The notes: generated from the letters alone by a model not told the origin. Counted from the first letter of the stretch, positions 16,773 through 44,211 are shown. The stretch: 64,000 bases of DNA from Dehalococcoidia bacterium (GCA_965263165.1 OZ253584.1:2560747-2624746), one strand, 5' to 3'. Made by a program: numbers and translations.

Positions 16773-16838
16773 CAACGGCGTTTGGCCCGGCGCCTCAGGC
16801 AGCGGGCCACAAACCATCGAGGAGATGCAGAAAGCGCT

Positions 16839-17783: not shown

Positions 17784-18686
17784 GTGCAACTCCCGATTCA
17801 CAATAGTAAGGGTGAAGTAGTCGGCCAGGCTGAGGTGGCGGATGTCCTCTTTGGCGGGCCGGTCAACCGGCCCCTGCTCCACCAGGTCCTGGTAACCCAG
17901 CTTGGCAATCACCGAGCGGGAACCCACTCCACGAAGACCCGCGCGGAAGTGGCCGGAGGCGGTCGCAAGCCCCGGCCCCAGAAGTACACCGGACGGTCCC
18001 GCCAGGGGAGCATTCGCTCGCCCCAGTGGAAGGGCGGCGGCATCGTCTTTGGCCCCAGGCCCCGCAGCCATCGCCGCGATATTCCCAAGAAGATGCGCAG
18101 GCTGGCCCTCCGGTCAGCGCTGTCTTCCCGGGTGGGTTCCAGCGAAGTGATCCTGCTCGAGTCCTTAGCCTTCGCCGCGCCCAAGACGCAGGAGCTCCGC
18201 ATCGCCCTCCAGAACGTGGGCGCCCACAGGTCCACGCTCGTGGTCATCGGCGAACCCACGCGGACTGTCGCGCTGTCGGCCCGCAACCTGCCGAGGGTTC
18301 GGGTTCTGCCAGCCGACAGGCTCAATGTTGAAGACGTGCTGCGGTACCATCGGATCGTCATGACGGTGGATGCCGTCCGCAAGGCGGAAGAGCTATGGGC
18401 AAGGCCGCTGATGAAACGAGAGGTCGGCCTACTGGAGGCGGTTGTGACAGCGCCGGAGGCTGAGGCAGAGGACGCCGCGGCCACTGAGGATAGATCTGAA
18501 GTTTCCGCCCAGCCCGAGGCGGCAATCGCGGCCTCAGTGGATGACGCAGCCGCGGCAACAGATGACGATGCCGACGCGACAGCGGAGGCTTCTGTCGAGG
18601 CGCCCTTAGAAGCCGGCTCCGAGCCAGCGCCTGCCGCTTCTTCGGAAGAAGCGGCGGAAGACGGCCAACCAGAGGACAAAGAGTAA
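17784..18686 (+). CDS. rplD: 50S ribosomal protein uL4 with an acidic C-terminal extension (~85 aa)
   Basis: [30 protein letters not shown] core, then an A/E/D-rich tail. Confidence 0.97.
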
Positions 18687-18692
18687 ACAGCC

Positions 18693-18977
18693 ATGGACCT
18701 TCACGAAGTTCTCCGGAAGCCGGTCGTAACCGAGAAGAGCACGCTGATGCAGGACCGGCAGAAGTACGTGTTCGAGGTGGCGCCCGAGGCCAACAAGGTC
18801 CAGATAAAGGAAGCGGTGGAGACGGTCTTCAGCGTAAGCGTCATTGACGTCAATGTGATGAAGGTGCGGCCCAAGCCCAAGCGGCGGGGCGCGCACCGGT
18901 ACCAGACGCGTACGTGGAAGAAGGCCATCGTCACGCTGACCGCAGAGTCCAAGATCGAATTTTTCGAAGGGGCATAG
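18693..18977 (+). CDS. rplW: 50S ribosomal protein uL23
   Basis: [25 protein letters not shown]. Confidence 0.98.
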
Positions 18978-18980
18978 GCT

Positions 18981-19811
18981 ATGCCGGCCACGAAGAAGTA
19001 CAAACCAACGACTCCAGGGCAACGCGGCACGGTGCGCTCCTCGTTCGAGGAGATCACAAAGACGAAGCCGGAAAAGCGCTTGGTCGTGGGAGGGAAGCGC
19101 TCCGGGGGACGAGGCGTCCGCGGGACAATCACCGTCCGACACCGCGGCGGCGGACACAAGCGGAGGCTCCGTATTGTGGACCTGAAGCGGGTGAAGCGGG
19201 GGGTTCCCGGCAAGGTCATTGCCATCGAGTACGACCCCTACCGGTCCTCGAGGCTGGCCCTGGTGCAGTACGTGGACGGGGCCAAGGGCTACATTCTGGC
19301 GGCCAATGGGGTCCAGGTTGGGGCGTCCGTTGAGGCGGGGCCGGATGCAGCGCTGAAGCCCGGGTGCGCCCTACCCTTGCGAGTAATACCCACGGGCCAG
19401 CAGGTCCACAACATCGAGCTGAACCCTGGCGCGGGCGGACAACTGGTGCGCAGCGCTGGGACCTCTGCCCAGGTCATGGCGCGGGAGGACAACAGAGTGA
19501 GCCTGCGCTTGCCCTCTGGGGAGACCCGTTGGGTGAACCATGAGTGCTACGCAACGATTGGCCAGGTTGGCAACGTTGAGCACAAGAACCTCAAAATCGG
19601 CAAGGCAGGACGCAAGCGGCACATGGGCTGGCGTCCCACGGTGAGGGGCTCGGCGATGACGCCCAGGGATCACCCCCACGGTGGCGGCGAGGGGCGGTCG
19701 CCGATTGGGATGCCCCACCCCAAGACGCCTTGGGGCAAACCGGCGCTGGGCGCGCGCACTCGCCGCAACAAGCGCACGAACGTTTTCATCGTGCGGCGGC
19801 GGAACAAGTAG
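18981..19811 (+). CDS. rplB: 50S ribosomal protein uL2
   Basis: [27 protein letters not shown]. Confidence 0.99.
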
Positions 19812-19875
19812 GCCAGGGCTGGCCACCGAGTCTCAAGGCGAGGACTAGTCAAAAAGACACAGGGGAGAGGGATCG

Positions 19876-20160
19876 ATGTCCCGATCGATTAAGAAGGGTC
19901 CGTACGTACACCCGAAGTTGGCCAAGAAGGTGGAGCGCATCCAGAGGAGCGGCTCCAAGATCATCATCAAGACGTGGTCTCGGGCCTCCATGATCATGCC
20001 TGACATGATCAGCCTGACCATCGCGATTCACAATGGACGCCGGCACATACCGATCTTCATCACGGAAAACATGGTGGGGCACCGGCTTGGGGAGTTTGCT
20101 CCCACCCGGACCTTCCACGGGCACGTATCCAAGTCGGACCGGACGCGGATGCGGAGCTAG
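19876..20160 (+). CDS. rpsS: 30S ribosomal protein uS19
   Basis: [23 protein letters not shown]. Confidence 0.99.
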
Positions 20161-20168
20161 GAGCGGCA

Positions 20169-20507
20169 ATGGCAGTGACAGCGAGTGTGAGGAATTTGGG
20201 CGTGTCGCCCCAGAAGGCGCGGCTGATTCTGGATGTCATCCGGGGACAGCGGGTGGAGCAGGCGCTGAACGTGCTCAAATTCATGCCCAGCCCCACGGCC
20301 CGCGATATTGCCAAGGTAGTCAAGTCGGCGGCCGCCAACGCGGAGAACAACAACTTTCTGGCGCCTGGCGAGCTGCACATCGTGGCGGCTTACGCCAACG
20401 ACGGGATGCGGCTCCGCCGCTTCCGGCCAAGGGCCAGGGGCCGGGCGGACCGCATAACGCGGCGGCACGCGCACGTCACCATCGTCGTGGACGAGAAGGA
20501 GCAATAG
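20169..20507 (+). CDS. rplV: 50S ribosomal protein uL22
   Basis: SPQKARL, SAAANAENN, RFRPRARGR. Confidence 0.99.
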   Translation: MAVTASVRNLGVSPQKARLILDVIRGQRVEQALNVLKFMPSPTARDIAKVVKSAAANAENNNFLAPGELHIVAAYANDGMRLRRFRPRARGRADRITRRHAHVTIVVDEKEQ

Positions 20508-20508
20508 C

Positions 20509-21345
20509 TTGGGCCACAAAACCCATCCCGTGGGCTTTCGCCTCGGAGTGATCAAGGACTGGCAGGCCAGGTGGTTCGGTCATAGGGCCGAAGATTACCG
20601 AAAGCAGGTCCAGGAAGACCTTCGCATCCGGTTGATCATCTTCAAGAAGCTGCCGGACGCGGGCATCTCCCGCGTCGAAATCGAACGCGGGTCTCAGGAA
20701 CTGGTCGTCAATATTCACACCGCCAGGCCCGGGATCGTCATCGGACGCGGCGGGACGCGGGTGGAGGAATTGCGGCAGGCGTTGGAAAGCCTGACCGAGA
20801 ACAAGGCCCGGCTCAATGTCGTGGAGGTTCGGAACCCTGAGCTCGACGCCTTTCTGGTGGCGCGCAACATCGCCGACCAGCTTGAGCGGCGTATCGCCTA
20901 TCGGCGGGCGATGCGCCAAGGCCTCACCCGTACGATGCAGGCCGGGGCCAAGGGCATCAAGATCGTGTCCTCGGGTAGGCTGGGAGGCGCCGAGATCGCC
21001 CGCCAGGAAAAGGCCATGGATGGCAGGGTGCCCCTGCACACGCTTCGGGCGGACATTGACTTCGCCATCGCCGAGGCCCGGACCCAGATGGGGGTGGTCG
21101 GAGTGAAGGTGTGGATCTACAAGGGCGACATCCTGCCAGAGCTTGACGTCGCTGAAGAGGACATGGCGCCCATTGAGTTCCAGGTCGTGGACGAGGGCGG
21201 TGAGAAGGCTGCGGCGGAAGAGGGCGGGATGGCGTCTGTAGCGGCGCCTCAAGCTGCGGCCGCAGCAGACCCGCCGGTTGCTGGACAGCTCGCGGCGGAA
21301 CCGACGTCCCCTGCCCCACAGGCGGCGGACGGAGAAAGGACCTAG
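20509..21345 (+). CDS. rpsC: 30S ribosomal protein uS3 with an acidic C-terminal extension
   Basis: [34 protein letters not shown], then an E/A/P-rich tail. Confidence 0.98.
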
Positions 21346-21355
21346 GAGAGCGGAG

Positions 21356-21796
21356 ATGCTTCAACCAAGGAGGATCAAGTACCGAAAGATGCACCGCGGC
21401 CGCCGCCGGGGCAAGGCTCAGGGCGGCAATCAGGTCGACTTCGGTGAATTCGGTATGAAGGCCATGGGCGTCACGTGGCTCACGGCTCGGCAGATCGAAG
21501 CGGCTCGGCGGGCCATCGTGCGGCACCTCCGCCGGGGCGGGCAGCTCTGGATACGGGTATTCCCGGACAAGCCGATCACCGAGAAGCCGCTGGAAACACG
21601 GATGGGCAGCGGCAAGGGCAACGTGGAAGGCTGGGTGGCCGTGGTAAAGCCCGGAAGGATACTGTTTGAATTGGCGGGCGTAAGGGAAGAGGTGGCCAAA
21701 GAAGCGTTTCGCAAGGCTTCCCACAAGCTGCCCATTGACGTCCGCATGGTGTTCCGCGAGGAAACGATAGAGAGCGGCGCTGGCGCGCCTCTCTAG
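21356..21796 (+). CDS. rplP: 50S ribosomal protein uL16
   Basis: [18 protein letters not shown]; start at the ATG after GGAG. Confidence 0.98.
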
Positions 21797-21818
21797 CACT
21801 AAGGGATAGCGATACGAA

Positions 21819-22028
21819 ATGGCAAAACTAAGGGCAAGCGAGCTGAGGCAGTTGAATGATAAGGAGTTGGCGGACGAGCTCTTGGAGTCGCGCCGCTCCC
21901 TGCTGAATCTCCGCTTCAGAAAGGCAACGATGCAGTTGGACAACGTTAACGAGGTGGGCCAGGCCCGGAAGAAGGTGGCCCAGCTTCTCACCATCATCCA
22001 AGAGCGGCGGCTCGTAAGCGAGAGCTAG
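21819..22028 (+). CDS. rpmC: 50S ribosomal protein uL29
   Basis: [16 protein letters not shown]; position in the operon. Confidence 0.95.
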
Positions 22029-22030
22029 TA

Positions 22031-23335
22031 ATGGCGAACCGAAGGACCCGCGTTGGGCGGGTGATCAGAGACAAGATGGAAAAGACCGTCATTGTGGCGG
22101 TGGAGCGGCGGACGACGCACCCGGTGTACCGGAAGACCGTCAAACGACTGACGAAGTTCGCGGCACATGCCGAGAGCGGCGTTTGCTCGGTGGGGGACCT
22201 CGTCCGCATCGAGGAAACGCGGCCACTGTCGCGCTCCAAGCGCTGGCGGGTCATAGAGGTCCTGGAGCGCAAGGCGATCCCGGTGGCAGCCACTGTGGAG
22301 GTGGCAGTGCAAGAGGCCGTCGCCCCGCCAACGCAGGCGCCGGCGGTTGCCCAGGAAACCCCCGCAGCTGAGGTAGCTCCCGGTGAGGTGGCTGAGGCGG
22401 AAGCGCCCGTTGTGGAGGCTTCGTTGGACGAGCCGGTAGCTGAGACGGAGGCATCCGCTGAGGAGGCCTCGTCGGACGAGCCGGTGGCTGAGACGGAGGC
22501 TCCCGTTGAGGATGCGCCGTCGGATGAGCCAGTGCCTGAGACGGGGGCGGCCGTTGAGGATGCGCCGTCGGACGAGCCAGTGGCTGAGACGGAGGCGGCC
22601 GTTGAGGATGCGCCGTCCGATGAGCCGGGAGCTGAGGTGGAAGCGCTCGCTGAGGAGGCTTCGTCGGACGAGCCGGCAGTTGAGGTGGAAGCGCTCGCTG
22701 AGCAGGCTTCGTCGGACGAGCCGGCAGTTGAGGTGGAAGCGTCCGTTGAGGAAGCTTCGTCAGACGAGCCGGTAGCTGAGGCGGAAGCGCCCGTTGAGGA
22801 GGCTTCGTCTGACGAGCCGGCAGTTGAGGTGGAAGCGCTCGCTGAGCAGGCTTCGTCGGACGAGCCGGTAGCTGAGGCGGAAGCGCTCGCTGAGCAGGCT
22901 TCGTCGGACGAGCCGGCAGTTGAGGTGGAAGCGCTCGCTGAGGAGGCTTCGTCGGACGAGCCGGCAGTTGAGGTGGAAGCGTCCGTTGAGGAAGCTTCGT
23001 CAGACGAGCCGGTAGCTGAGGCGGAAGCGCCCGTTGAGGAGGCTTCGTCTGACGAGCCGGCAGTTGAGGTGGAAGCGCCCGTTGAGGAAGCTTCGTCAGA
23101 CGAGCCGGTAGCTGAGGCGGAAGCGCCCGTTGAGGAGGCTTCGTCGGACGAGCCGGTAGCTGAGGCGGAGGCGCTTGTTGAGGATGCGCCAGCGGATGAG
23201 CCGGTAGCTGAGGTGGAAGCGCCCGCTGAGGAGGCTTCGTCGGATGAGGCGGTAGCTGAAGCGGAGGCGTCCGTTGACGAGGCGCCGTCGGAATCCAGTG
23301 AATCCCGGCAGGACGAGCCGGAGAAAGCCCAATGA
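22031..23335 (+). CDS. rpsQ: 30S ribosomal protein uS17 with a ~345-aa acidic repeat tail
   Basis: [33 protein letters not shown] core, then 16-aa repeats; stop overlaps the rplN ATG. Confidence 0.95.
22409..23272 (+). repeat. 18 tandem 48-bp coding repeats ((A/V)EEASSDEP(V/A)(A/V)E(A/V)EA(P/L/S))
   Basis: 48-bp period verified (e.g. tgaggtggaagcg at 22681 and 22729); no unique spacers. Confidence 0.95.
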
Positions 23336-23700
23336 TTCAGCCCCAAACTCGCCTGCGAGTAGCTGACAACTCCGGCGCCAAGGTCATCATGTGCATAAAC
23401 GTTCCGGGCGGCACGCGAAGACGTTACGCCCGGGTCGGCGACATCATCGTGGCATCCGTGAAGGAGGCCATCCCCAACTCGGCGGTGCCCAAGGGGGAGG
23501 TCATCCGAGCCGTCATCGTGCGGACCACCAACCCTACCCGACGGCCCGACGGCACCTACATCCGCTTCGACGACAACGCAGCGGTGGTGCTGTCCGACCA
23601 GCACAATCCGAGGGGAACCCGTATATTCGGGCCCGTCGCTCGAGAGCTGCGAGAGAAGGCATTCACGCGCATCGTTTCCCTGGCTCCGGAGGTGCTCTAG
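23332..23700 (+). CDS. rplN: 50S ribosomal protein uL14
   Basis: [32 protein letters not shown]. Confidence 0.99.
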
Positions 23701-23701
23701 C

Positions 23702-24019
23702 ATGGCGGCAAAGATTCGAAAGGGAGATACGGTGGAGATCATGCGGGGCAAGGACCGGGGCAAGCGGGGCGCCGTTCAGGGATTGGACCCCAAGAACGGT
23801 CTGATTATGGTGGAGGGGCTCAACCAGGTTACGAAGCACGTGCGCCCCAACCCCAGGATGCGCCAGGCCGGACGGATTACCAGCGAGATGCCGTTGCCTG
23901 TTGGCAACGTCCGGTTCGTATGCGTCAATTGCGGAAAGGCCGTCCGGGTGGGTTTTCAGATGCTCGACGATGGAACTAAGGTCCGGGTGTGCAAACACTG
24001 TGGCGAGTCGGTGGAGTAA
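23702..24019 (+). CDS. rplX: 50S ribosomal protein uL24
   Basis: [17 protein letters not shown] (KOW). Confidence 0.98.
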
Positions 24020-24729
24020 TGGACGACAACGAAGTTCAACAGCCAGAGGAAGCCGCCAAGGCCGAAAAGCCCGCGGCCCAAGAGAAAGCGCCGGCGGCGC
24101 CCCGCCAACAGCGGGCGAAGGGCCGGCGTCAGCAACCCAAGGCCACGGCTGAGGACGGCAACGCAGCGGCGGAGCCGCCGCCCAGCAGGCCCAGGATGTT
24201 GGAGCGCTATCGTCAGGAAGTGGCCCCTGCGATGGTCCGCGACTTCAGCTACGCCAACGTGATGGAGATTCCGCGGGTCACCAAGGTGGTGGTCAACGTG
24301 GGGTTGGGCGAGAGCCTCCTGAATCCGCGGGCGCTTGAAGCAGCAATGGGGGATCTCACGGCCATTGTTGGCCAACGCCCCGTCACGACCAAGGCTCGGA
24401 AGTCAATCGCCGGATTCAAGCTGCGCAAGGACATGACCATCGGAGCGATGGTGACGTTGCGGGGCAGGCGGATGTGGGAGTTCCTGGACAGGCTCATCAA
24501 CGTGGCCCTGCCCCGGATCCGCGACTTCCGCGGCATATCCCGCCATAGCTTCGACGGCCGGGGCAACTTCTCGCTGGGACTGCGCGAGCAAGTCATTTTC
24601 CCCGAGATCGACTACAATTCGGTGGACCGGCTGCGCGGCCTGCAGATCGCCATCGTCACCACGGCAAAGACCGACGAGGAGAGCCTGCGGCTGCTGGAGC
24701 ATCTGGGCATGCCGTTCAGCAAGAACTGA
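24019..24729 (+). CDS. rplE: 50S ribosomal protein uL5 with an N-terminal extension
   Basis: [29 protein letters not shown]; ATG overlaps the rplX stop. Confidence 0.97.
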
Positions 24730-24769
24730 TACCGCCTCCAACGCGGAGGCCGGACCAAGGGGAGGATGC

Positions 24770-24955
24770 GTGGCCAAGGTTTCGAAGGTCGTCAAAGACC
24801 GCAAGGCGCCGAAGTTTTCGACGCGGCAGCACAATCGGTGCAATCGCTGTGGCCGTCCCAAGGCCTATATAAGGCACTTCGGGTTGTGCCGCATTTGCTT
24901 CCGGCAGTTAGCGCTCCGCGGGGAGTTGCCGGGTATTAGAAAGGCAAGCTGGTAA
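24770..24955 (+). CDS. rpsN: 30S ribosomal protein uS14, zinc-binding type Z (61 aa)
   Basis: RCNRCGRP and LCRICFR CxxC pairs. Confidence 0.98.
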
Positions 24956-24986
24956 TTGGGCCTCAGGCCCAGAAGCAGGAAGGGAA

Positions 24987-25388
24987 ATGTCAGTAAGCGA
25001 CCCCATAGCCGACATGTTGACCAGGATTCGCAATAGCGTCATGGCCCGCCACGACGCCGTGCTCGTCCCCGCCTCCAAGCCGAAGATAGCCCTGGCTCGA
25101 ATCCTGAAGGAGGAGAGCTTCATCAGGGACTACGAGGTGGTGAGGGGGCCCACGCCGCAGAAGTTGATACGGGTATTCCTTCGCTACTACGAGGACAAGC
25201 GGCCCGCGATTGCGGGCCTGCGCAGGGTCAGCAAGCCCGGCCTCCGCGTCTACGTGGCGAAGCATGAGATACCCAGACACTACGGTGGGGTTGGTATCTC
25301 CATTGTGTCCACTCCTGAGGGCATGATGCCCGGCCAGGAGGCGTGGAAGAAGGGCATTGGCGGCGAGCTAATGTGCTACGTCTGGTAG
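24987..25388 (+). CDS. rpsH: 30S ribosomal protein uS8
   Basis: DPIADMLTRIRN, SKPGLRVY. Confidence 0.99.
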   Translation: MSVSDPIADMLTRIRNSVMARHDAVLVPASKPKIALARILKEESFIRDYEVVRGPTPQKLIRVFLRYYEDKRPAIAGLRRVSKPGLRVYVAKHEIPRHYGGVGISIVSTPEGMMPGQEAWKKGIGGELMCYVW

Positions 25389-25398
25389 GAGTTCCTCT

Positions 25399-25947
25399 AT
25401 GTCGAGAATCGGACGAAAACCCATTCCCGTGCCTGGCAACGTCGATGTGCAAATCGCCGGCAGCAGTGTCACGGTCAAAGGTCCATTGGGGACGCTGTTC
25501 CGGGAGTTTCACCCGGACATGGGCATTGCCCCCGCCGACGGGACCCTCGTGGTCACCCGGCCCACCGACCACCGGTTTCACCGGTCGCTCCATGGTCTGA
25601 CGCGGGCGCTGCTGAGCAACATGGTGGTGGGTGTGAGCGACGGCTTCACCAAGGTCATCGAAATGGTGGGCGTGGGGTATCGGGCCCAGCAGCAGGGACA
25701 GGGGATCAGCCTGGCGGCGGGATTCACGCACACGGTGGAGATCCAACCCGACCCTGGCGTCACCCTGACCGTTGAGGGCAACAATCGCATCCTAGTTCAG
25801 GGCAGCGACCGCGAGTCCGTGGGACACCAGGCCGCCCGGATAAGGGCCATACGGCCCCCCAACCGGTACACCGGGAAGGGCATCCGCTACTCCGGCGAGG
25901 TGGTGCGGCTCAAGGCGGGTAAAGCTGCAGCAGGAAGGAAACGCTAG
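25399..25947 (+). CDS. rplF: 50S ribosomal protein uL6
   Basis: [23 protein letters not shown]. Confidence 0.99.
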
Positions 25948-25948
25948 C

Positions 25949-26317: not shown

Positions 26318-26319
26318 CT

Positions 26320-27099
26320 ATGACCACCAATCAGAACCGCCAAGACCGCGTCGACCCTTCAGACCTCAACCTCACGGAGAAGGTGGTGCAAATCCGCCGT
26401 GTGGCCAAGGTGGTCAAGGGTGGCCGGCGCCTCAGCTTCAACGCCATGGTCGTCATCGGCGATGGCGACGGACACGTGGGCATCGGACTGGGCCGGGCCA
26501 CGGCTGTGCCGGACGCCGTGCGCAAGGGCACGGCCATCGCCCGCAAGAGCCTCGTCCGGGTGTCCCGGCGAGGCAACACGGTGCCCCACGAGACCATTGC
26601 GCGCCACGGGCCGGCGCGGGTGCTCATAAAGCCCGCGTCCGCCGGGACCGGGATCATCGCCGGGGGCGCAGTGCGAGCCGTCCTGGAGCAGGCCGGCATC
26701 AAGGATGTGATCAGCAAGTGCCTGGGCAGCAGAAACCCCATCAACGTGGCCAAGGCCACGGTCAATGGGCTGGCCTCCATGCGTGATCCCGCGGTTGAGC
26801 TAGCGCGCCGCAAGGGTATTTCCCTATCCGCCGCCGTCGCCGCCATCAGGGCGCCCGCGCCTGAGGTTGTGGCCCCGCGGGAGGTCGCCCTGCCGGACGA
26901 ACCCGCTCCGCAGCCGTCTGCCGAGGCGGATGCCGCCGGAGCGCCGACCGCCGCAGTTGGGGAGACCCCGGCGGGAGAGGAAGCGGCGTCCACAGGCCCC
27001 ACCCGGGAAAGCGGCCCGGAGCAACGCATATTCTCGCCCGAAGACGATTCCAGCGAGGGAGCCCCCGCGGCGGAAGCCGGAGGGGATGCCTCCTCTTAG
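26320..27099 (+). CDS. rpsE: 30S ribosomal protein uS5 with an A/P/E-rich C-terminal extension
   Basis: RVAKVVKGGRRLSF, GTGIIAGG. Confidence 0.98.
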   Translation: MTTNQNRQDRVDPSDLNLTEKVVQIRRVAKVVKGGRRLSFNAMVVIGDGDGHVGIGLGRATAVPDAVRKGTAIARKSLVRVSRRGNTVPHETIARHGPARVLIKPASAGTGIIAGGAVRAVLEQAGIKDVISKCLGSRNPINVAKATVNGLASMRDPAVELARRKGISLSAAVAAIRAPAPEVVAPREVALPDEPAPQPSAEADAAGAPTAAVGETPAGEEAASTGPTRESGPEQRIFSPEDDSSEGAPAAEAGGDASS

Positions 27100-27138
27100 C
27101 CGCTGCCGAAACGCAGCAACCGGTAGGTAACCAAGTTC

Positions 27139-27333: not shown

Positions 27334-27338
27334 CCACC

Positions 27339-27788
27339 ATGCGCATGCATCAACTGCAACCGGCCAAGGGGGCCGTTCGTAAACGCCTCCGCTTGGGCCG
27401 AGGCGACGCCAGCGGCTCGGGCAGCTACTCCGGCCGCGGTATGAAAGGGCAGAAGTCGCGCAGCGGCGGCGGCGTGCCCCCCTGGTTCGAGGGTGGCCAG
27501 CTTCCGTTGGTGAAGCGGATGCCCTATCGCCGGGGGTTTACCAACATCTTCCGGAAGGTCTACGCCGAGGTGAACCTGGACAGGCTGGGGGACTTCCCAG
27601 CCGGCGCTGAGGTGACCCCCGACGCTCTGGTGGCGGCCCGTCTGCTGAAGAACACGCGGACACCAGTGAAGGTCATGGCAAGGGGTGACCTCGACAGGGC
27701 CTTGAACGTCTCCGCCCACCGGTTCACGGCCGCTGCAAGGGCGAAGATCGAAGCTGCTGGAGGCTCGGTAACGGAGCTCAAGGCTTAA
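27339..27788 (+). CDS. rplO: 50S ribosomal protein uL15
   Basis: GRGMKGQKSRSG, FEGGQLPL. Confidence 0.99.
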   Translation: MRMHQLQPAKGAVRKRLRLGRGDASGSGSYSGRGMKGQKSRSGGGVPPWFEGGQLPLVKRMPYRRGFTNIFRKVYAEVNLDRLGDFPAGAEVTPDALVAARLLKNTRTPVKVMARGDLDRALNVSAHRFTAAARAKIEAAGGSVTELKA

Positions 27789-29134
27789 TGCGTCCCGCAG
27801 CGGCCAGCCGGCAACAGACAGGGCGCCCTGCCCTGCTTCAGGCCATGATCGACGCCTTCAGGGTCCCTGACCTTCGGGCCAAGATCCTGTTCACGATCAT
27901 GATCCTGGTGCTGTTCCGATTCATTGCCCACGTGCCGGTCCCCGGTGCCGAACGGGAGGCCCTAGCCGGCTTCTTCAACGACCCCAACAACCAGCTCTTC
28001 GGGCTATTGGACATCTTCAGCGGCGGAGCGCTGCGTAACCTCAGCATAGCCGCCCTCGGCGTCTATCCCTATATCACGGCGTCCATCGTGATGCAGCTCA
28101 TGGTCCCGGTCATTCCGGGGCTCAAGAACCTATCGCAGGAAGGTGAATGGGGCCGTCAGCGGATCAACCAGATCACGCACCTGTTGGCCGTTCCCGTGGC
28201 GATGGCCCAGGGCTACGGCCAGTTGCTCATTCTGCAACAGGCGGGCGTCTTTGGCGGGCTCTCCTTCAGCGGCGGGCAACTCCTCACATCAATTGCTATC
28301 ATTCTTGGCCTTGCCGCCGGAACTATGCTGCTCGTCTGGATGGGCGAGCTGATCACAGAACGCGGCATTGGCAACGGCATATCCCTGATCATCTTCGCCG
28401 GCGTGGTGGCGGGCTTCCCGCAGTTGATCCAGCAGGGCTATCTAAGCAGGGGGAACCTCACCGGGCTGCTCGTCTTCGTCGCCATCGGCCTTGGGCTCAT
28501 CTTTCTCATCGTTATCTTCAATGAGGCCGAGCGCCGGATCCCCGTGCAATACGGGCGCAGCGTCTTCCAAGGGGGACGCATGTACAGGCAGGGAGGGGCG
28601 ACGCATCTGCCCATACGGGTCAACTCCGCCGGCATGATCCCGTTGATCTTCGCGTTTTCCGTGGTCATCCTTCCGGGCACCATCGCCAGCTACTTCGCTC
28701 AACCCGGAGACACTGCGATTATTTCCCGGGTGGCGCTGGCGATATACAACCTCTTCAACTCCACGGGGCCGGTGTACTGGCTCGCCATCTTCGTCCTTGT
28801 TGTGGCCTTTGCATTCTTCTATACGATTGTCGTATTCCAACAGCAGGACTTGGCAAAGAATCTGCAACGCAACGGTGGTTTCATACCAGGAATCCGCCCA
28901 GGTAGACCGACCAGCGACTACCTCAACAGGATTATTTTGCGTGTCACGTGGGGCGGCGCCTTCTTCCTGGGCTTCGTGGCGGTCGCGCCCTATTTGGCCA
29001 GCCTCGTCACCAGTGTGAACGCAATCACGCTCTCCAGTACGGCCCTCCTCATCCTGGTCGGCGTGGCCTTGGATACGATGCGCCAATTGGAGGCGCAATT
29101 GATGATGAGAAACTACGAAGGCTTCCTGAAATAG
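27788..29134 (+). CDS. secY: Preprotein translocase SecY
   Basis: LGVYPYITASI, GIGNGISL, GGFIPGIRPG; multiple TM segments. Confidence 0.99.
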   Translation: MRPAAASRQQTGRPALLQAMIDAFRVPDLRAKILFTIMILVLFRFIAHVPVPGAEREALAGFFNDPNNQLFGLLDIFSGGALRNLSIAALGVYPYITASIVMQLMVPVIPGLKNLSQEGEWGRQRINQITHLLAVPVAMAQGYGQLLILQQAGVFGGLSFSGGQLLTSIAIILGLAAGTMLLVWMGELITERGIGNGISLIIFAGVVAGFPQLIQQGYLSRGNLTGLLVFVAIGLGLIFLIVIFNEAERRIPVQYGRSVFQGGRMYRQGGATHLPIRVNSAGMIPLIFAFSVVILPGTIASYFAQPGDTAIISRVALAIYNLFNSTGPVYWLAIFVLVVAFAFFYTIVVFQQQDLAKNLQRNGGFIPGIRPGRPTSDYLNRIILRVTWGGAFFLGFVAVAPYLASLVTSVNAITLSSTALLILVGVALDTMRQLEAQLMMRNYEGFLK

Positions 29135-29137
29135 CGC

Positions 29138-29779
29138 ATGCGAATACTTTTGCTAGGGCCCCCGGGGGCCGGAAAGGGCACCCAGGCCGGAACCGTGGCT
29201 GAGAAGCTGGGCGCGCCCCACGTCGCCACGGGCGACATATTTCGAGAGAACGTTGGCCAGGCCACCGAGTTGGGAATCCTGGCCAAGCAGTACATGGATC
29301 AAGGCCAGCTCGTCCCTGACGATGTCACCATCGCCATGGTGCTGGACCGCTTGGGCCGGGACGATTGCGCCAACGGCGTGGTACTAGACGGCTTCCCGCG
29401 CACCATCGCTCAGGCGGAGGCCTTGGACCTAGCCCTTGCAGCCAAGGGCCAGCAGATTGATCGAGCGCTGCTTGTTGAGGTATCCGAGGACGAGTTGGTG
29501 AGCCGGCTCAGCGGGCGCAGGGTATGCCCAGGTTGCCAGCACTCCTACCACGTGGTGGAGGCGCCTCCAGGGGCCGAGGGCGTTTGCGACGATTGCGGCG
29601 GCAGGCTGGAGCAGCGGCCCGACGACGCGCCGGACAAGATACGGATCCGGTTCCAGGTGTACGCGGACCAGACGGCCCCGCTCGTTGGGTATTTTGAGAT
29701 GCAGGGCAAGCTGACGAGAATCAACGGAGAGCAACCGATTGAAGCAGTGACCCGCGACCTCGCGGCATCACTGCTTTGA
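29138..29779 (+). CDS. adk: Adenylate kinase (Zn-lid type)
   Basis: GPPGAGKGT, LDGFPRT, CPGC...CDDC lid. Confidence 0.99.
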   Translation: MRILLLGPPGAGKGTQAGTVAEKLGAPHVATGDIFRENVGQATELGILAKQYMDQGQLVPDDVTIAMVLDRLGRDDCANGVVLDGFPRTIAQAEALDLALAAKGQQIDRALLVEVSEDELVSRLSGRRVCPGCQHSYHVVEAPPGAEGVCDDCGGRLEQRPDDAPDKIRIRFQVYADQTAPLVGYFEMQGKLTRINGEQPIEAVTRDLAASLL

Positions 29780-29899
29780 GGCATAGAGCATTGCCCCATC
29801 ACAGCCACGGCGCTCACAGGGAACGTCGCGGGCCTCATGCGGCGGTTGGGACCAGCGCTGGGGAAATAGGGCTTGGCAAGCGGTCCATCGGTTGGGCTT

Positions 29900-29928
29900 T
29901 GGACTTTCCAGCAGGAACGAGTACAATA
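29900..29928 (+). promoter_or_regulatory. Internal promoter upstream of map
   Basis: TTGGAC-17nt-TACAAT in the adk-map gap (coordinates approximate to within 2 nt). Confidence 0.55.
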
Positions 29929-29986
29929 GAGAGCAGGCATCCCCGCCCGCAGCGGCAAGGCAGCGCCGGCGGGGTATGTTGACGTT

Positions 29987-30802
29987 ATGAACAACAGCTT
30001 CGTTTTTACCGCCGCGGCGGACCAACAGCAGGATGGGATAACCATCAAATCGGCCCGCGAGCTCAACGCCATGCGGCAGGCTGGGCGCGTCGTGGCATGG
30101 ACGGTTGAGGCCCTCCTCGCCGCTGTCCGGCCCGGCATGACCACAGGGGAGTTGGATGGCGTGGCGCGCCGGGAGATAGCCCGGCACGGGGCAGCGCCGT
30201 CATTCCTGGGCTACCGGGGATTTCCCGCCACGATCTGCACCTCGCTGAACGAGGAGATCGTACACGGCATTCCCGGCGACCGCGTCCTGCAGGAGGGAGA
30301 CCTCATAAAGCTGGATTGCGGCGCCATCGTCGACGGCGTCCATGCCGACTCGGCGGTAACCGTGGGTGTTGGCAGCGTCACGTCTGAGCAGGAGGAGTTG
30401 CTGCGGGTTACGCGCAACAGCTTGGAAGCAGGCATCAGCGCCAGCCGGGGCGGCGCCCGCGTCGGGGACATTGGGGCCGCTGTAGAGGGCTACGTTGCCA
30501 CACAGGGAGACTACGGGGTCGTCAGAGAATACGTGGGGCACGGGATTGGGCGGCGGTTGCACGAAGAACCACAAGTGCCCAATTACGCCCAGCCCTCGAA
30601 GGGTTCCCTGCTCAGACCCGGAATGGCCTTGGCCATTGAGCCGATGGTGAACCTGGGCACGTGGCGCACAAGAGTGCTGGACGATGGATGGACGGTGCTG
30701 ACGGCGGACGGAAAGCTGTCGGCCCATTTCGAACACACGATGATCATTACGGACGGCGAGGCAGAGGTAGTAACCCGCCGCCAACATGAGGAAACGCTCT
30801 AG
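29987..30802 (+). CDS. map: Methionine aminopeptidase type I
   Basis: NEEIVHGIP, DCGAIVDG, HADSA, GHGIG, AIEPMVN, SAHFEHT. Confidence 0.99.
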   Translation: MNNSFVFTAAADQQQDGITIKSARELNAMRQAGRVVAWTVEALLAAVRPGMTTGELDGVARREIARHGAAPSFLGYRGFPATICTSLNEEIVHGIPGDRVLQEGDLIKLDCGAIVDGVHADSAVTVGVGSVTSEQEELLRVTRNSLEAGISASRGGARVGDIGAAVEGYVATQGDYGVVREYVGHGIGRRLHEEPQVPNYAQPSKGSLLRPGMALAIEPMVNLGTWRTRVLDDGWTVLTADGKLSAHFEHTMIITDGEAEVVTRRQHEETL

Positions 30803-30817
30803 ACGGTAAGGAGGTCG

Positions 30818-31036
30818 ATGGCGAAGAAGGAGAGCATTGAAGTCGAGGGGTTGGTCAAGGAGGCGCTGCCCAACGCTTCCTTCCGCGTAGAGCTGGCCAA
30901 CGGGCACCTGGTTCTGGCCCATGCCTCCGGTAAGATACGTCTCCACTTCATCCGGGTTCTGCCTGGCGACCGCGTCCTAGTGGAACTCTCTCCCTACGAC
31001 CTCACCCGCGGCCGAATCACCTACCGGTTCAAGTAG
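30818..31036 (+). CDS. infA: Translation initiation factor IF-1
   Basis: [24 protein letters not shown]. Confidence 0.99.
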
Positions 31037-31074
31037 GCGTTGCGTCCCGCCAGCCACTGAAAGGAACTATTGCT

Positions 31075-31188
31075 ATGAAAGTGAGAAGTTCGGCCAAGCC
31101 GATGTGCGACAAGTGCAAAATCATCCGTCGGAGAGGTGTGGTGCTGGTTATTTGCGAGAACCCGCGCCACCGCCAGAGACAGGGATAG
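31075..31188 (+). CDS. rpmJ: 50S ribosomal protein bL36 (37 aa, not in the ORF track)
   Basis: [37 protein letters not shown]. Confidence 0.97.
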
Positions 31189-31198
31189 GAGGCAAACG

Positions 31199-31582
31199 AT
31201 GGCTCTAGTAGCCGGCGTCAACATTCCGGACAACAAACGAGTCGAGATCGCTCTGCGGCGAGTGCATGGCGTGGGGCCTACGCGCTCCAAGGAGATCGTG
31301 GCCAGGCTTGGCATCGAGGGCAACCCTCGCATCTCCGAGCTCACCGACCAGGACATGAGCCGCATCCGCGAGGTCATAGACCGGGAATACACGGTGGAGG
31401 GTGACCTGCGGCGCGAGGTGAACCTCAACATTCGCCGCCTCATCGACATCGGGAGCTACCGGGGGCTGAGGCACCGCCACAACCTGCCGGCGCGGGGCCA
31501 GCAGACCCGCACCAATGCACGTACCCGCCGCGGGGCGCGGAAGACGGTGGCCGGACGCCGCCGCACCTTCGCCAAGAAGTAA
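31199..31582 (+). CDS. rpsM: 30S ribosomal protein uS13
   Basis: [29 protein letters not shown]. Confidence 0.98.
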
Positions 31583-31615
31583 TCGCTTCAGAAGCAAACG
31601 CATCAAAGGAGAAAC

Positions 31616-32005
31616 ATGGCGCGCCAGCGAACGCGAACCCGCCGCCGGGAACGCAAATCCGTACCCGTGGGCAGGGCCTACGTCCAGTCCACCTTCAACA
31701 ACTCGCTCATCACGCTTACGGACCCGCAGGGAAATGTGATTTCGTGGAGCAGCTCGGGATCCGTGGGCTTCAAGGGGTCCCGGAAGGGCACCGCGTTCGC
31801 CGCCCAGAGGGCGGCTGAAGCTGCGGCCCGCAAGGCAATGGAGCATGGGCTGCACCAGATAGACGTTTACGTCAAGGGCGCCGGCTCCGGCCGCGAGGCC
31901 GCCATCCGCGCGCTGCAGGTGGCGGGCTTGCACGTCACAGGTATCATCGACGTAACCCCTGTTCCACACAACGGTTGCCGGCCACCCAAACAGCGCCGGG
32001 TCTAA
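31616..32005 (+). CDS. rpsK: 30S ribosomal protein uS11
   Basis: [22 protein letters not shown]. Confidence 0.99.
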
Positions 32006-32022
32006 GGAGTTCGCACGAGCAT

Positions 32023-32649
32023 ATGGCACACTACACAGGACCAGTTTGTCGATTTTGCAGGCGCGCGGGGGAGAAGCTCTTCCTGAAGGGAGAGCGCTGC
32101 TTCTCACCAAAGTGCGCCATTGAGAAGCGCCGCCGGGCGCCCGGGGAGCAGATGCCCAGGCGCCGACGTCAGTCCGACCGGGCCGTTCAGCTCCGCGAGA
32201 AGCAGAAGCTGCGGCAGACCTACGGGGTGCTGGAGCGGCAGTTCAGCAACTACATGGCCGACGCCCGGCGGCAGAAGGGTGTTACGGGCCAGTTGCTGCT
32301 GCAGACGCTGGAAAGCCGCCTGGACAACGTCGTGTTCCGGTTGGGTTTCGCCGACTCCCGCAGCCAGGCGCGGCAATTGGTGACGCACGGCCACTTCAAC
32401 GTCAACGACAGAAAGACCGACATTCCGTCGTACTTGGTCAAGGCCGGCGACGCGATTGGGTGGCGCGAAAACAGCGCCAAGAACGAGTACTTCAAGATAT
32501 TAAAGGAGGGTGGCCTCAGACGCACACCCCCGAGTTGGCTTGGGTTGGACAGCGAGACGATGGCAGGCCGGGTCTATTCCATGCCCGACCCGCAGGAGGT
32601 TGACACTCGCATAGATACGCGGCTCATCGTGGAGTACTACTCCCGGTAG
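32023..32649 (+). CDS. rpsD: 30S ribosomal protein uS4
   Basis: [27 protein letters not shown]. Confidence 0.98.
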
Positions 32650-32705
32650 CGATCCAAAGCCCTTTCGACGTAGCGCATGAGCCGTTCGGCGGCATATGAG
32701 GAGGA

Positions 32706-33749
32706 TTGCACACAGCTATGGTAACCAATGGGGTTCCCCGCCCCGAAGTCAAGACACTCGAGAGCACCAACATCTATGCAAAATTCGCCGTGGAACCCTT
32801 GGAGCGGGGCTTCGCCACCTCCTTGGGCAATCCCTTGCGCCGGGTTCTGCTCAATAGCGTTCTAGGGGCAGCGGTCACCTGGATTCGGATTGATGGGATT
32901 CTTCACGAGTACACGGCCATCCCAAACGTGAGGGAGGATGTCCAAGAGTTCATCCTGAACGTCAAATCCCTCCGGCTGCGCGCCCGCAGCGAACGCTCCT
33001 GCACCCTTCAGTTGGAGACAGAGGGCCAGACGGAGGTGTACGCCAGGGACATTGTGGCGCCGCCGGACTTCGAGATCATGAACCCGGACCTGCTGCTGGC
33101 CACGCTGGACTCCCCGGAGGCCAGGCTGTCCGTGCAGTTCAACGTCGAGCACGGCAAGGGCTACCAGCCCGCGGAAGCCAAGGACGGCATGCCCATCGGC
33201 GTTATTCCGGTGGACGCCATCTTCAGCCCCGTTCGAAAGGTGAACTACACGGTTGAGCACACGCGGGTCGGTCAGTTCACCGACTACGAACGCCTGATCG
33301 TGGAGGTGCTCACCGACGGCACCCTCAACCCCCTGGAGGCCATGCGCTCGGCCGCCGACATGCTGGTGGAGCACTTCTTCCTCCTGACGAACGCGGCGGC
33401 AGCCGAGGGCAAAGAGGGTTCTCCGGCCGCTCTATCGGAGCCGATCGAGACGCTAGGCCTGACATCCCGCACAATGAACAGCTTGAAGCGGGCCGGGCTC
33501 AACAATGTGGGCGATCTTGTGGAGATGCCCAAACAGGTACTCCTGAAGACGCGGAACTTCGGCGAGAAGTCCATGCAGGAAGTGTACGAGAAGCTAGAGG
33601 AGATGGGGTTTGTCCTGCCCGACGACGCGGCGGGAGTGGCAGGAAGCCCCGAAGGGGATGCGCCGGATGATGAGGCGGGCAGCTTCGAAGACGATGCGGC
33701 GGTGGCGACCGCCGCTGAGGCGCCCGATGAAGAGGAGGAGACAGCATGA
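32706..33749 (+). CDS. rpoA: RNA polymerase alpha subunit with an acidic tail
   Basis: EPLERGF, LGNPLRRVLL, HEY, KVNYTVE, RNFGEKS. Confidence 0.98.
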   Translation: MHTAMVTNGVPRPEVKTLESTNIYAKFAVEPLERGFATSLGNPLRRVLLNSVLGAAVTWIRIDGILHEYTAIPNVREDVQEFILNVKSLRLRARSERSCTLQLETEGQTEVYARDIVAPPDFEIMNPDLLLATLDSPEARLSVQFNVEHGKGYQPAEAKDGMPIGVIPVDAIFSPVRKVNYTVEHTRVGQFTDYERLIVEVLTDGTLNPLEAMRSAADMLVEHFFLLTNAAAAEGKEGSPAALSEPIETLGLTSRTMNSLKRAGLNNVGDLVEMPKQVLLKTRNFGEKSMQEVYEKLEEMGFVLPDDAAGVAGSPEGDAPDDEAGSFEDDAAVATAAEAPDEEEETA

Positions 33750-34099
33750 TCCATCGAGTAGCAGGGCGGCGGTTGGGGCGCACTTCCGGGCCCCGGCGGG
33801 CGCTGTTGAGAAACCTCGTTGCCTCTCTGATCCGCCACGAGCACATCCGCACTACCGAGGCCAAAGCCAAGGAGGCGCGGCCAATGGCCGAATCGTTGAT
33901 CACGCTGGCCAAGAAGGGCACGTTGCACAGCCGGCGTCAGGCCTTGTCGAAGGTGCCTCAGAAGGATGTTGTGAAGAAGCTCTTCGACGAGCTTGGCCCC
34001 CGTTATGAAGAGCGGGCGGGCGGCTACACGCGCATCATCAAGATTGGTTTTCGCAAAGGGGACGCCGCTCCCTTGGTGCAGTTGGAGTTCGTGGAGTAA
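33746..34099 (+). CDS. rplQ: 50S ribosomal protein bL17
   Basis: RRLGRTSG, TTEAKAKE, GGYTRIIK. Confidence 0.99.
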   Translation: MIHRVAGRRLGRTSGPRRALLRNLVASLIRHEHIRTTEAKAKEARPMAESLITLAKKGTLHSRRQALSKVPQKDVVKKLFDELGPRYEERAGGYTRIIKIGFRKGDAAPLVQLEFVE

Positions 34100-34105
34100 C
34101 ACAGC

Positions 34106-34930
34106 GTGCGTAGCCAACCCCTCGAGACATCGAGGAGGCGGATCGCCCTTCGCATTGAGTACGATGGAACCGAATACCTGGGCTCGCAGCTTCAAAGCTC
34201 CGGGCCCACAATCCAGGGAGAGCTCGAGCGAGCCCTGGAGCAGTTGACCAGCACCTTTACACGAGTGAGCTTGGCAGGCCGCACGGACGCCGGGGTTCAT
34301 GCCCTGGGACAGGTGGCAGCCTTCACAACGCCGGCCCCCTACCCGCCTGATACGTTCCGACGGGCTCTCAACGCCCACCTGCCGGACGGCATCAAGGTCC
34401 GGGCCGCCCACGACGTGGCGGCCTCCTTCGATCCAAGGCGCGAGGCGGCAAGCCGCACCTATTGCTACGCCATCCTGAACCGCGATGCGCCGTCGCCGCT
34501 ACTGCGGCGCTACACGCACCACGTGGCGCAGGCCCTATCCGTCGATGCGATGGACATGGCGGCAAGGAGCCTTGAAGGGCGACGCGACGCGGCATCGTTC
34601 GGAGGGATCCCTGGCGCGGGGCGGTCGTCTGTGAGGACGGTGCAGTTGTGCCGGGTCTTCAAGCAGGGGGACCTAGTCCTGCTGGTGATCCGGGCGAGCG
34701 CCTTCCTTCAGGGGCAGGTGCGGCGCACCGCAGGAACGTTGGCCCAGGTCGGCGCAGGGAAGCTTGATGGCGATGGATTCCTGCGGATCAGGGATGCGGC
34801 GCAGGCCGGGGCTGCGGGGCCAGCCTTGCCGGCGCAGGGCCTGTGCCTGCTCGCAGTGGAGTACAGCGGCCTACCGCCAGCGCCTTTGGAGGGCTGGCCG
34901 CCCGGAGCGCGCCCGCCGGCGCAACAGTAG
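34106..34930 (+). CDS. truA: tRNA pseudouridine(38-40) synthase
   Basis: [31 protein letters not shown]. Confidence 0.96.
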
Positions 34931-35063
34931 CCGCCGGCGCAGGATTGAGACAGGTTGGCATCGCCGCGAGGAGAACGCGAGGAAGACACCGGGGCCGTAC
35001 GCCCCGCGAATAGGACAGGTAGGACCGCCCGCGTGGGTCTCGCCTGACACAAGGAATATTGCA

Positions 35064-35789
35064 ATGGTTGAAAAGACGTATAGTCCGAAAGCATCAGAGC
35101 TATCGAGCACCTGGCGCGTCATAGATGCCGAAGGCCAAGTGCTGGGGCGGCTGGCGACGCAGATCGCAGGGCTGCTCCAGGGCAAGCACAAGCCGGGGTA
35201 CGCGCGCCACATGTTGACCGGCGACTTCATCATCGTCGTGAACGCCGAAAAGGTGGCGATCACGGGGCGAAAGCGCGCGCAGAAGGTGTACTACCGCCAC
35301 ACCGGCTACATGGGCCACCTGAAGGAGACGCCCCTGTGGAAGATGCTGGAAACGCACCCGGAGCGGGTGCTTCAGAAAGCCATCAAGGGCATGCTGCCAA
35401 AGAACTCCCTGGGCAGCCAGATGTTTCGACGGCTGAAGATTTACCCGGGACCCGATCATCCGCACCAGGCTCAGGTCCTCGGTGGAGAGAGGGCCAATCT
35501 GCGCACGCCGCAGCGCCCGCTAGAAGAGCGGCGAAAGAAACGCCCCGGGCGAGTCAAGACTCCTGTCGAGGAGGCCGCCGTAGCAGCGGCGGCCGCGGAA
35601 GAAGCAGTCTCCACTATCGAGGAGCCGGCAGCCGCGGCTGAGGAGCAGACGGTGGCGGAGGCTTCCCAGGAGCCGGTGGCCGAGGGACAGACGGACGCCG
35701 TTGCCGGGCCGGAGGGAGAGGACGTGGCCCCCGCCGATGAGCCCGCCGAGGCGGAAGCCGCCGAGACCGAAGAGAAAAGAGAGGCCTAA
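35064..35789 (+). CDS. rplM: 50S ribosomal protein uL13 with a C-terminal basic-then-acidic extension
   Basis: [38 protein letters not shown] core. Confidence 0.97.
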
Positions 35790-44190: not shown

Positions 44191-44211
44191 GGTCCCATTC
44201 CCTCCGGGCCC

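Follow-up and report, generated by a model that had tools for sequence, protein, structure and literature searches.

Disordered, mostly polyanionic terminal extensions of ribosomal proteins and RpoA in a SAR202/Dehalococcoidia bacterium

Bacterial ribosomes are usually viewed as compositionally uniform, and a ribosomal protein gene cluster in which protein after protein runs on, past its conserved domain, into a long acidic stretch raises the question of whether such tails are real, how they arise and what keeps them. The cluster in question lies in a stretch of 64,000 nucleotides (GCA_965263165.1, OZ253584.1:2560747-2624746; hereafter the window, GC content approximately 64%) from a SAR202/Dehalococcoidia bacterium, and occupies 13.7-36.2 kb of its plus strand as a str/S10/spc/alpha ribosomal protein gene cluster of standard gene order, with uS12, uS7, EF-G and uS10 through bL17 followed by TruA, uL13 and uS9. 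Six proteins encoded here, uL4, uS3, uS17, uS5, uL13 and RpoA, carry genuine, in-frame, disordered and mostly polyanionic terminal extensions. Extensions accounted for 761 aa, or 16.9% of the ribosomal protein residues encoded from S10 to uS9, almost all of them polyanionic C-terminal tail. For proteins as abundant as these, that burden is real.

Tails of ribosomal proteins and RpoA

Tail boundaries were set from the ends of Pfam domains relative to the ends of the proteins, and the features described lie on the plus strand unless stated otherwise. The longest tail was that of uS17 (22031-23335; 434 aa; Pfam S17 at aa 9-76), in which an OB-fold core of aa 1-80 with a net charge of +13 continues into a polyanionic tail of 352 aa (aa 83-434, nt 22277-23332), fourfold the size of the core itself and with a net charge of -115. 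In uL4 (17784-18686; 300 aa; Pfam L4 domain at aa 17-203), a tail of 93 aa (aa 208-300, nt 18405-18683) carried a net charge of -23 as opposed to +21 for the core, and in uS5 (26320-27099; 259 aa; end of Pfam S5_C at aa 164) an Ala/Pro/Glu-rich tail of 91 aa (aa 169-259, nt 26824-27096) carried -13 as opposed to +17. The C-terminal extension of uS3 (20509-21345; 278 aa; Pfam domain end at aa 203), approximately 68 aa long with a net charge of -13 on a core of +12, contained a conserved post-core motif, E(D/E)MxPIEVT(L/V) (aa 215-226, nt 21151-21186), followed by a variable Ala/Glu/Pro-rich tail (nt 21187-21342). Similarly, that of uL13 (35064-35789; 241 aa; end of Pfam L13 at aa 134), 100 aa long with a net charge of -14 on a core of +12, contained a conserved basic segment (aa 142-170, nt 35487-35573) followed by an acidic Ala/Glu tail (nt 35574-35786). 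RpoA (32718-33749; 343 aa), which is not a ribosomal protein, carried a modest extension after the alpha C-terminal domain (CTD): Pfam RNA_pol_A_CTD ended near aa 296, approximately 48 aa before the stop codon, and the acidic tail comprised 43 aa (aa 301-343, nt 33618-33746) with a net charge of -16.

Among these six C-tails, lengths ranged from 43 to 352 aa, the summed fraction of A, E, P and D from 0.59 to 0.74 and net charge from -13 to -115 (-0.14 to -0.37 per residue). Ala and Glu, which made up approximately 40-50% of tail residues with P, D, V and S as the remainder, were the two most frequent residues of the uL4, uS3, uS17 and uL13 tails, while in that of uS5 Pro ranked above Glu. Asp plus Glu amounted to 19-37% and Lys plus Arg to 0-12% (1% in uS17), whereas random codons of 64% GC would by our own arithmetic yield approximately 6% and 15%, respectively; tail composition is thus far from that encoded by GC-rich random sequence. 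With next to no Lys or Arg, the tails would be missed by tryptic proteomics. Shannon entropy was 2.8-3.3 bits for tails as opposed to 3.8-4.1 bits for cores, and the Uversky charge-hydropathy plot classed every C-tail as disordered. In agreement with this result, AlphaFold2 modeling of uS17 from a 36-sequence alignment gave a confident OB fold for aa 1-80, with core pLDDT (predicted local distance difference test) values of 80-97, and values of 35-50 without secondary structure for residues 100-434, while residues 215-277 of uS3 scored below 50. Chains in solved structures end with the core. For bacterial uS17 all are 76-135 aa long, and only kinetoplastid mitochondrial uS17m reaches approximately 310-340 aa; for bacterial uL13 they are 137-195 aa long, and none matched past aa 137 of the query.

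Low complexity did not extend through every tail. The first 12-29 or so residues of the uS3 and uL13 tails were conserved motifs. In an alignment of 36 relatives with uS3 proteins of 240-348 aa, P221, I222, E223 and V224 of the post-core motif were invariant or nearly so, with I222 invariant. Docking of this motif on its own core was not predicted by AlphaFold2, and it probably contacts rRNA, a neighboring protein or a partner. The basic segment of uL13 was kept in L001 and L002, relatives described below, and recognizable in a basal one (L013; RRRPKKSRVKLPEP); it lacks a counterpart in solved structures and is likely to be an rRNA-binding anchor. A further motif, EVAEVKPxELD, was noted in uS17 of most clades and was missing from uS17 of the window.

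Long acidic low-complexity stretches were confined to the genes above in a six-frame scan of the whole 64 kb, and approximately 42 non-ribosomal genes of the window had no such segment, with the exception of rpoA. A table of homologues indicated that the other proteins of the operon lack extensions, their ends agreeing with those of homologues. These results bear out most of a preliminary description of this DNA, in which Ala/Glu/Pro/Asp-rich, disordered tails on the six proteins, hence on both ribosomal subunits, were placed, where positions were given, to within a few codons and neighboring ribosomal proteins were given normal length. Its description of the extensions as low-complexity failed for the proximal parts of those on uS3 and uL13.

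The tails were also present in close relatives; their absence there had been named as grounds for abandoning the idea. A genome-collection scan with uL6 identified a Dehalococcoidia metagenome-assembled genome (MAG), L001, of the same species as the window (96% nucleotide identity), followed by L002, "SAR202-VII-2", with 83% uL6 identity and by approximately 20 more Dehalococcoidia MAGs with 52-63% identity. L002 belongs to SAR202 group VII, MAGs of which are mostly from depths of 200 m or less. The conspecific set comprised the window and seven other assemblies (L001, L041 and L122-L126; 96.0-98.6% nucleotide identity) that originate from at least five ENA samples. In-frame tails were found in L001, L122, L123, L125, L126 and L002. 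Among conspecific assemblies, the uL4 tail was 93-95 aa long (protein of 300 aa in L122-L126 and 302 aa in L001; frame broken in L041) as compared with 61 aa in L002, uS3 was 278 aa long in all seven other assemblies, and uS5 was 256-260 aa long. Tails of 84-92 aa that kept the motif EQRIFSPED were noted on uS5 of L001 and L002, as were tails of 113-125 aa on uL13 of both and of 28 and 40 aa, respectively, on RpoA; the uL13 tail of L013 was 177 aa long. The summed C-terminal extensions of the window genome (707 aa, net charge -194) were the largest among the genomes compared.

In addition to these C-tails, uL5 (24019-24729; 236 aa; Pfam L5 from aa 80) has a putative N-terminal extension of 59 aa (24019-24195). 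This extension is rich in A, P, E, Q, K and R and its net charge is 0; thus, the N-terminal extension of the preliminary description is present and is not acidic as described. Translation from ATG 24019 is likely, judging from a GGTGGAG Shine-Dalgarno site ahead of this codon, an excess of third-position differences between strains over the extension, which favors the upstream start, and a comparable open extension with a conserved MSEVxGDDRLE start in most Dehalococcoidia loci. It falls short of proven because the canonical N-terminus of uL5 coincides with a second, internal ATG at 24196.

Gene junctions were tight. As the preliminary description had noted, translational overlaps were kept: uS17/uL14 and RpoA/bL17 overlap by ATGA, and uL24/uL5 are joined by TAATG. 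The Shine-Dalgarno sequence of the next gene was located inside final tail codons, which constrains the tail ends (...PEDKE, ...ADGERT, ...EPEKAQ, ...GGDASS and ...EEKREA).

The uS17 repeat array and tails in relatives

Within the uS17 tail, approximately 19 in-frame copies of a 48-bp (16-aa) unit are arranged in tandem at 22387-23292, for which Tandem Repeats Finder (TRF) gave a period of 48, 18.9 copies, 86% matches and 0% indels. Compared with the window, the distance between the starts of uS17 and uL14 in conspecific assemblies differed by +4, -2, -3, -5, -5 and -9 units, each of exactly 48 bp. The uS17 gene spanned 873-1497 nt among the eight conspecific assemblies, protein lengths across strains were 498, 434, 402, approximately 386, 354 and 290 aa, and repeat copies numbered approximately 10-23, with two alleles, of 16 and 23 copies, obtained from one sample. 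The array is thus a protein-coding variable number tandem repeat, made up of head-to-tail, in-frame units and differing by whole units between conspecific genomes. Short tandem repeats were also identified in other tails, including that of uS3 in L004. These findings indicate that the tails lengthen and shorten by in-frame tandem duplication and deletion.

In six independent assemblies with exact 48-bp steps the uS17 frame was open, while in the remaining two, L041 and L124, the array contained an extra frameshifting indel on top of the 48-bp steps. Both frameshifts are probably assembly errors. L041 (8x coverage) was also frameshifted in the core of uL4, an essential protein, and is for this reason regarded as an error-prone assembly; the frameshift of L124 was a 23-nt partial-unit duplication. 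A truncated uS17 of 135 aa (P0001) was considered as proof that the tail is dispensable and was rejected, as the same contig has the uL4-core frameshift at 8x coverage. Gene callers gave uS17 of L041 (4781-5940) as a protein of 135 aa plus an orphan open reading frame (ORF) of 203 aa, called no gene at the uS17 start of L124 (11523-12562), where an orphan 203-aa ORF stood alone, and intact long uS17 genes (L122-L126) had no precomputed Pfam hit on record. Thus, the tails break gene callers, automated annotation can lose them, and they inflate phylogenomic marker alignments.

The repeat unit of uS17 was a 15-aa sequence, DEPVAEAVEAEAEVV, in L002 and EEPVAEAEPVVEEAV in the distant genomes L009-L011. 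Comparison of these units with that of the window revealed a core, (D/E)EPVAE, and a period of 15-16 aa shared by three lineages, a pattern for which shared ancestry combined with concerted evolution is one explanation and convergence the other. When 1.84 billion proteins were searched by phmmer with the uS17 tail as query, no shared module emerged, and the 51 hits were weak, heterogeneous and of low complexity; ten that were scanned included MAP7 and a sub-threshold extensin-like match. The idea of a shared mobile tail module was a dead end, the hits being unrelated low-complexity proteins.

A neighbor-joining tree of 16 core ribosomal proteins (no bootstrap) placed the window with L001 and L002 in clade A, L003-L006 and L012 in clade B, and L008-L011 and L032 in clade C, which grouped with L020 and clade D (L014-L017 and L029); L013 and L007 were basal. 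One clade B genome, L003, is a sponge-ground MAG (Langseth). Tails of uS17 measured 10-19 aa in the basal genomes, 30-38 aa in clade B, 66-228 aa in clade C, L020 and clade D, and 185-352 aa in clade A (416 aa in L126), and were essentially absent in a Caldilineaceae outgroup. Across approximately 20 Dehalococcoidia loci their net charge per residue was approximately -0.24 to -0.45, and their sequences shared no identity from clade to clade. The other tails were distributed differently. On uL4, tails of at least 53 aa were found in clades A and D and in L013, where the tail was basic (+10). Tails were found on uS5 in clades A (acidic) and B (neutral, helical-looking) and on uL13 in clade A and L013. 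Poly-Asp runs marked the RpoA tails of L008-L010 (clade C) and of all of clade D, which were 83-97 aa long. The tails are accordingly a mosaic of repeated independent gains, on different proteins in each clade and almost always acidic. Tails were thus kept in close as well as distant relatives, although as a clade-specific mosaic, and the "ribosome-wide system" of the preliminary description does not stand, as each clade extends another subset of proteins, not every tail is acidic (some are neutral, others basic) and RpoA lies outside the ribosome. GC content was not supported as the driver of tail length: summed over a locus, tail length correlated with GC at a Spearman coefficient of 0.36 (p = 0.11), and L002, at 57% GC, had tails of 529 aa.

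For comparison, JGI metagenome loci, none of which was closer than 69% identity, were used as a background set only. Among 80 background uS17 genes from unrelated lineages, the median tail was 2 aa and the maximum 100 aa; nine tails reached 30 aa or more, all of them acidic. In four Spirochaetaceae MAGs (L030, L033, L035 and L038), uL4 carried C-tails of 120-182 aa that consisted of AKP-rich tandem repeats, basic (+22 to +37) and histone-H1-like. Four Actinomycetota loci (L019, L021, L022 and L024) encoded acidic A/E/T-rich C-tails of 69-93 aa on bL17 (net charge -14 to -20) together with Arg/Gly-rich tails on uS3. A universal filter by which only acidic tails are tolerated was ruled out by the basic uL4 tails of Spirochaetaceae, which also indicate that the sign of tail charge is lineage-specific.

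Constraint on the tails and competing explanations

In a comparison of the window with L001, the ratio of nonsynonymous to synonymous substitution rates (dN/dS) was 0.094 for pooled cores (5,183 codons) and 0.47 for pooled tails (588 codons), with dN of 0.009 and 0.067, respectively, so that tails changed approximately sevenfold faster. Charge-changing replacements made up 24% of 76 tail differences as opposed to 38% expected from single-nucleotide neighbors with kappa = 2 (binomial p = 0.012). Thus, tail sequence turns over fast while negative charge and disorder stay, a combination from which we conclude that the bulk properties of the tails, rather than their sequence, are under constraint that is weak but real. 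The earlier proposal of selection rather than drift was borne out in part, by dN/dS below 1 and the deficit of charge changes, and was weakened by the loose length of uS17 and by a frame that translational coupling could also explain.

Our preferred reading, to which we assign a probability of about 0.5, is that the tails are entropic or electrostatic bristles under selection for bulk properties, a function that is predicted, and that they represent a lineage-wide propensity and not one coordinated system. By this mechanism, slippage or unequal recombination would generate tails at those ribosomal protein termini that face solvent, and selection would keep them acidic, soluble and non-RNA-binding regardless of sequence. 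The bristles would then raise solubility and reduce non-specific sticking to nucleic acids, to polycations and to each other, with ribosomes, free basic ribosomal proteins and RNA polymerase as possible beneficiaries. A surface location has been reported for low-complexity regions of ribosomal proteins in general (PMC6821194).

A number of points weigh against this reading. The deficit of charge changes is modest and partly confounded, since 26 of the 76 tail differences were A/V swaps that partly reflect repeat register. Enrichment of tails on ribosomal proteins relative to all other window genes had a p value of 0.075, and of 0.004 only with RpoA grouped post hoc. Neutral or basic tails occur in some relatives, as on uS5 of clade B and uL4 of L013. 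The length of uS17 appears to be loosely constrained, as judged from its 1.7-fold range among strains of one species, and two of the eight assemblies were frameshifted in the array. GC3 (third-position GC content) was 0.61-0.77 in tails and 0.81 in cores, a drop suggestive of relaxed selection on codons. In-frame upkeep could simply serve to protect translational coupling with the essential gene that follows, because a frameshift ends translation hundreds of bases before that gene, as seen in L041. Finally, the solvent-side position of the extended termini is presumed from 70S structures in general.

Several of these points are shared by the main rival, that the tails are near-neutral by-products, which we consider possible but on balance unlikely. 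According to this explanation, slippage-prone 3' ends rich in GNN codons expand at exposed, harmless termini, only sequences that neither stick to rRNA nor aggregate survive, the tails are functionless and frame is kept by coupling. Large copy-number variation within a species, the mosaic distribution among clades, the sevenfold faster dN with GC3 below that of cores, short tandem repeats in other tails, and tight junctions with the next Shine-Dalgarno sequence inside tail codons are all as it would predict, and uL4 of Spirochaetaceae, by tolerating tails of 120-180 aa, demonstrates that ribosome surfaces accept large appendages. The same spirochete tails, being basic, break the filter by which only acidic sequences survive. 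Further difficulties are a tail dN/dS of 0.47 and not approximately 1, together with the charge-change deficit; the persistence of uS17 tails in all Dehalococcoidia loci examined, across 50-60% core identity, in the face of a general bias of bacterial genomes toward deletion; and the addition of approximately 17% of residues to very abundant proteins.

The tails might also form a selected polyanionic corona on both subunits and RNA polymerase, with the uS17 array as a tunable, contingency-like locus for the surface charge of strains, an interpretation that we regard as doubtful. Such a corona might alter cytoplasmic behavior by way of spacing, cation or polyamine buffering, polycation resistance or phase behavior.

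It is improbable, in our estimation, that the tails act as self-chaperones, each acidic tail folding onto the basic RNA-binding surface of its free protein, keeping it soluble and guarding against promiscuous binding of RNA, until displaced by rRNA in the course of assembly. Tail charge nearly cancels core charge, within ±4, in uL4, uS3, uS5 and uL13, and among the 10 Dehalococcoidia loci in which the uS3 tail reached 40 aa or more, tail and core charges of uS3 summed to within ±5 in 9. Cancellation fails, however, for uS17, in which the tail massively overshoots its core, for RpoA, the core of which is already negative, and for uL4 of L002 and several others; moreover, tails were not docked on cores by AlphaFold2, and most basic ribosomal proteins of the operon lack any tail.

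Very unlikely is a docking platform, in which short linear motifs or repeats of the tails recruit a defined partner, whether a factor or chaperone or some structure of membrane or storage type. The embedded motifs of uS3, uS5 and, in most clades, uS17 and the (D/E)EPVAE core with its 15-16-aa periods in three lineages are compatible with docking, whereas these motifs are proximal and protein-specific, the bulk of each tail is without conserved sequence, EVAEVKPxELD is missing from uS17 of the window, phmmer found no shared module and no candidate partner gene was evident in the window. An RNA-level element, with the purine-rich repeat working as mRNA, for example as a Shine-Dalgarno-like landing array of 30S subunits for downstream genes, or a mis-annotated read-through or assembly artifact is largely refuted: each uS17 repeat can encode GAGGAGG, a GC skew peak lies over the array and two assemblies are frameshifted there, but GGAGG was rarer than in synonymous shuffles (14 vs 22.5 ± 3.0 in uS17), as expected of translated sequence, GGAGG, GGAG and GAGG in tails were at or below shuffle expectation, acidity is kept in lineages with different units and codons, six independent assemblies have an open frame with exact 48-bp steps, and the uL4-core frameshift marks L041 as error-prone.

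Other features of the window and relation to known systems

Additional features of the locus stand apart from the tails. No tuf (EF-Tu) gene was present between fusA and rpsJ (16772-16839), and uS14 was of the short, 61-aa zinc type. An insertion-sequence-type DDE transposase (DUF772 and DDE_Tnp_1) is encoded on the minus strand at 3063-4037, and a gene for a thiamine pyrophosphate (TPP) enzyme just upstream of rpsL was broken by a transposase of the same family in L122 (462-1436) and L123 (463-1278) and intact in L124-L126, indicating that such insertions vary between strains. An Rfam match to group II intron domain V/VI at 7505-7603 on the plus strand (54.6 bits vs a gathering score of 40) sits in a stretch of lower GC, and nearby ORFs (6213-6719 and 7004-7453) had no Pfam reverse-transcriptase match. 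Also noted were an 11/21/32-bp tandem repeat at 5385-5458 and, on the minus strand at 42684-44198, a 504-aa ORF with an unusual fusion of a cytochrome c domain (aa 148-241) to a PspA/IM30 domain (aa 263-490). In the Eubacteriaceae MAGs L018 and L025, the uL30 frame continued for approximately 150 aa into uL15 sequence, an apparent in-frame uL30-uL15 fusion or lost stop.

Among known systems, acidic tails occur on SSB and HMGB1. The concept of entropic bristles and acidic solubility tails (reviewed with regard to Glu in disordered proteins, PMC5424795) resembles the present case in that charged, proline-punctuated, structureless segments are attached to nucleic-acid-binding cores and keep their composition while sequence varies, and both disorder and high net charge were evident here from the Uversky plot and AlphaFold2. 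That concept derives mostly from engineered fusions and eukaryotic proteins, whereas the tails described here are known from sequence alone.

A variable-length acidic C-tail on a solvent-exposed protein of the small subunit is also formed when RimK poly-glutamylates the C-terminus of bS6, altering ribosome behavior and the proteome (PMC4741518, PMC7343187). That tail is enzymatic, post-translational, regulated and composed of a few to tens of Glu, in contrast with tails that are DNA-encoded, belong to proteins other than bS6 and reach 352 aa; neither rimK nor bS6 was found in the window. If functional, the tails would be a bacterial counterpart of eukaryotic ribosomal protein extensions and of regulated bS6 glutamylation, and would offer a handle on cytoplasm organization in abundant uncultured marine Chloroflexota. 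The eukaryotic and archaeal stalk proteins P1/P2/aL12 and eukaryotic uS2/RPSA (PMC4098866) likewise have flexible acidic C-terminal extensions, which project into the cytosol. At the ends of the stalk tails, a conserved hydrophobic motif serves to recruit translational GTPases, whereas tail ends in the window share no hydrophobic motif and the proteins that bear them do not belong to the stalk.

For RpoA, the delta subunit of Firmicute RNA polymerase, with its acidic, disordered C-terminal domain that acts as a polyanionic nucleic-acid mimic, is a possible analogue. Delta is a separate subunit, unlike the RpoA tails, which are fused to the alpha-CTD (43 aa in the window and 83-97 aa in relatives). 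The Spirochaetaceae uL4 tails are alike in being long, tandemly repeated, low-complexity C-tails, of opposite charge.

The closest precedent is the survey of Ntountoumi et al. (2019, Nucleic Acids Research; PMC6821194), in which 822 low-complexity regions of bacterial ribosomal proteins were described as rich above all in Ala and Glu and mostly C-terminal, recurring in many genera, with function given as unknown. The general kind of tail is therefore already known. The proteins highlighted by that survey (S2, S16 and L25 in more than 100 genera, and S3, S6, L3, L10, L17, L19, L21 and L31) include only uS3 of those extended here, and approximately half of its cases have at least 70% A+E as compared with approximately 40-50% here. 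In the literature, no prior report was found of a concentration of ribosomal protein tails in the SAR202/Dehalococcoidia lineage, and no prior description of RpoA among such tails, of a 352-416-aa tail on an 82-aa core, or of within-species copy-number polymorphism in an essential ribosomal protein. Unlike the surveyed regions, those of the window extend five ribosomal proteins of one operon together with RpoA, and one tail, four times as long as its core, is a regular 16-aa array that is polymorphic within the species. The window tails are thus an extreme, repeat-driven variant of the A/E-rich C-terminal low-complexity regions of bacterial ribosomal proteins.

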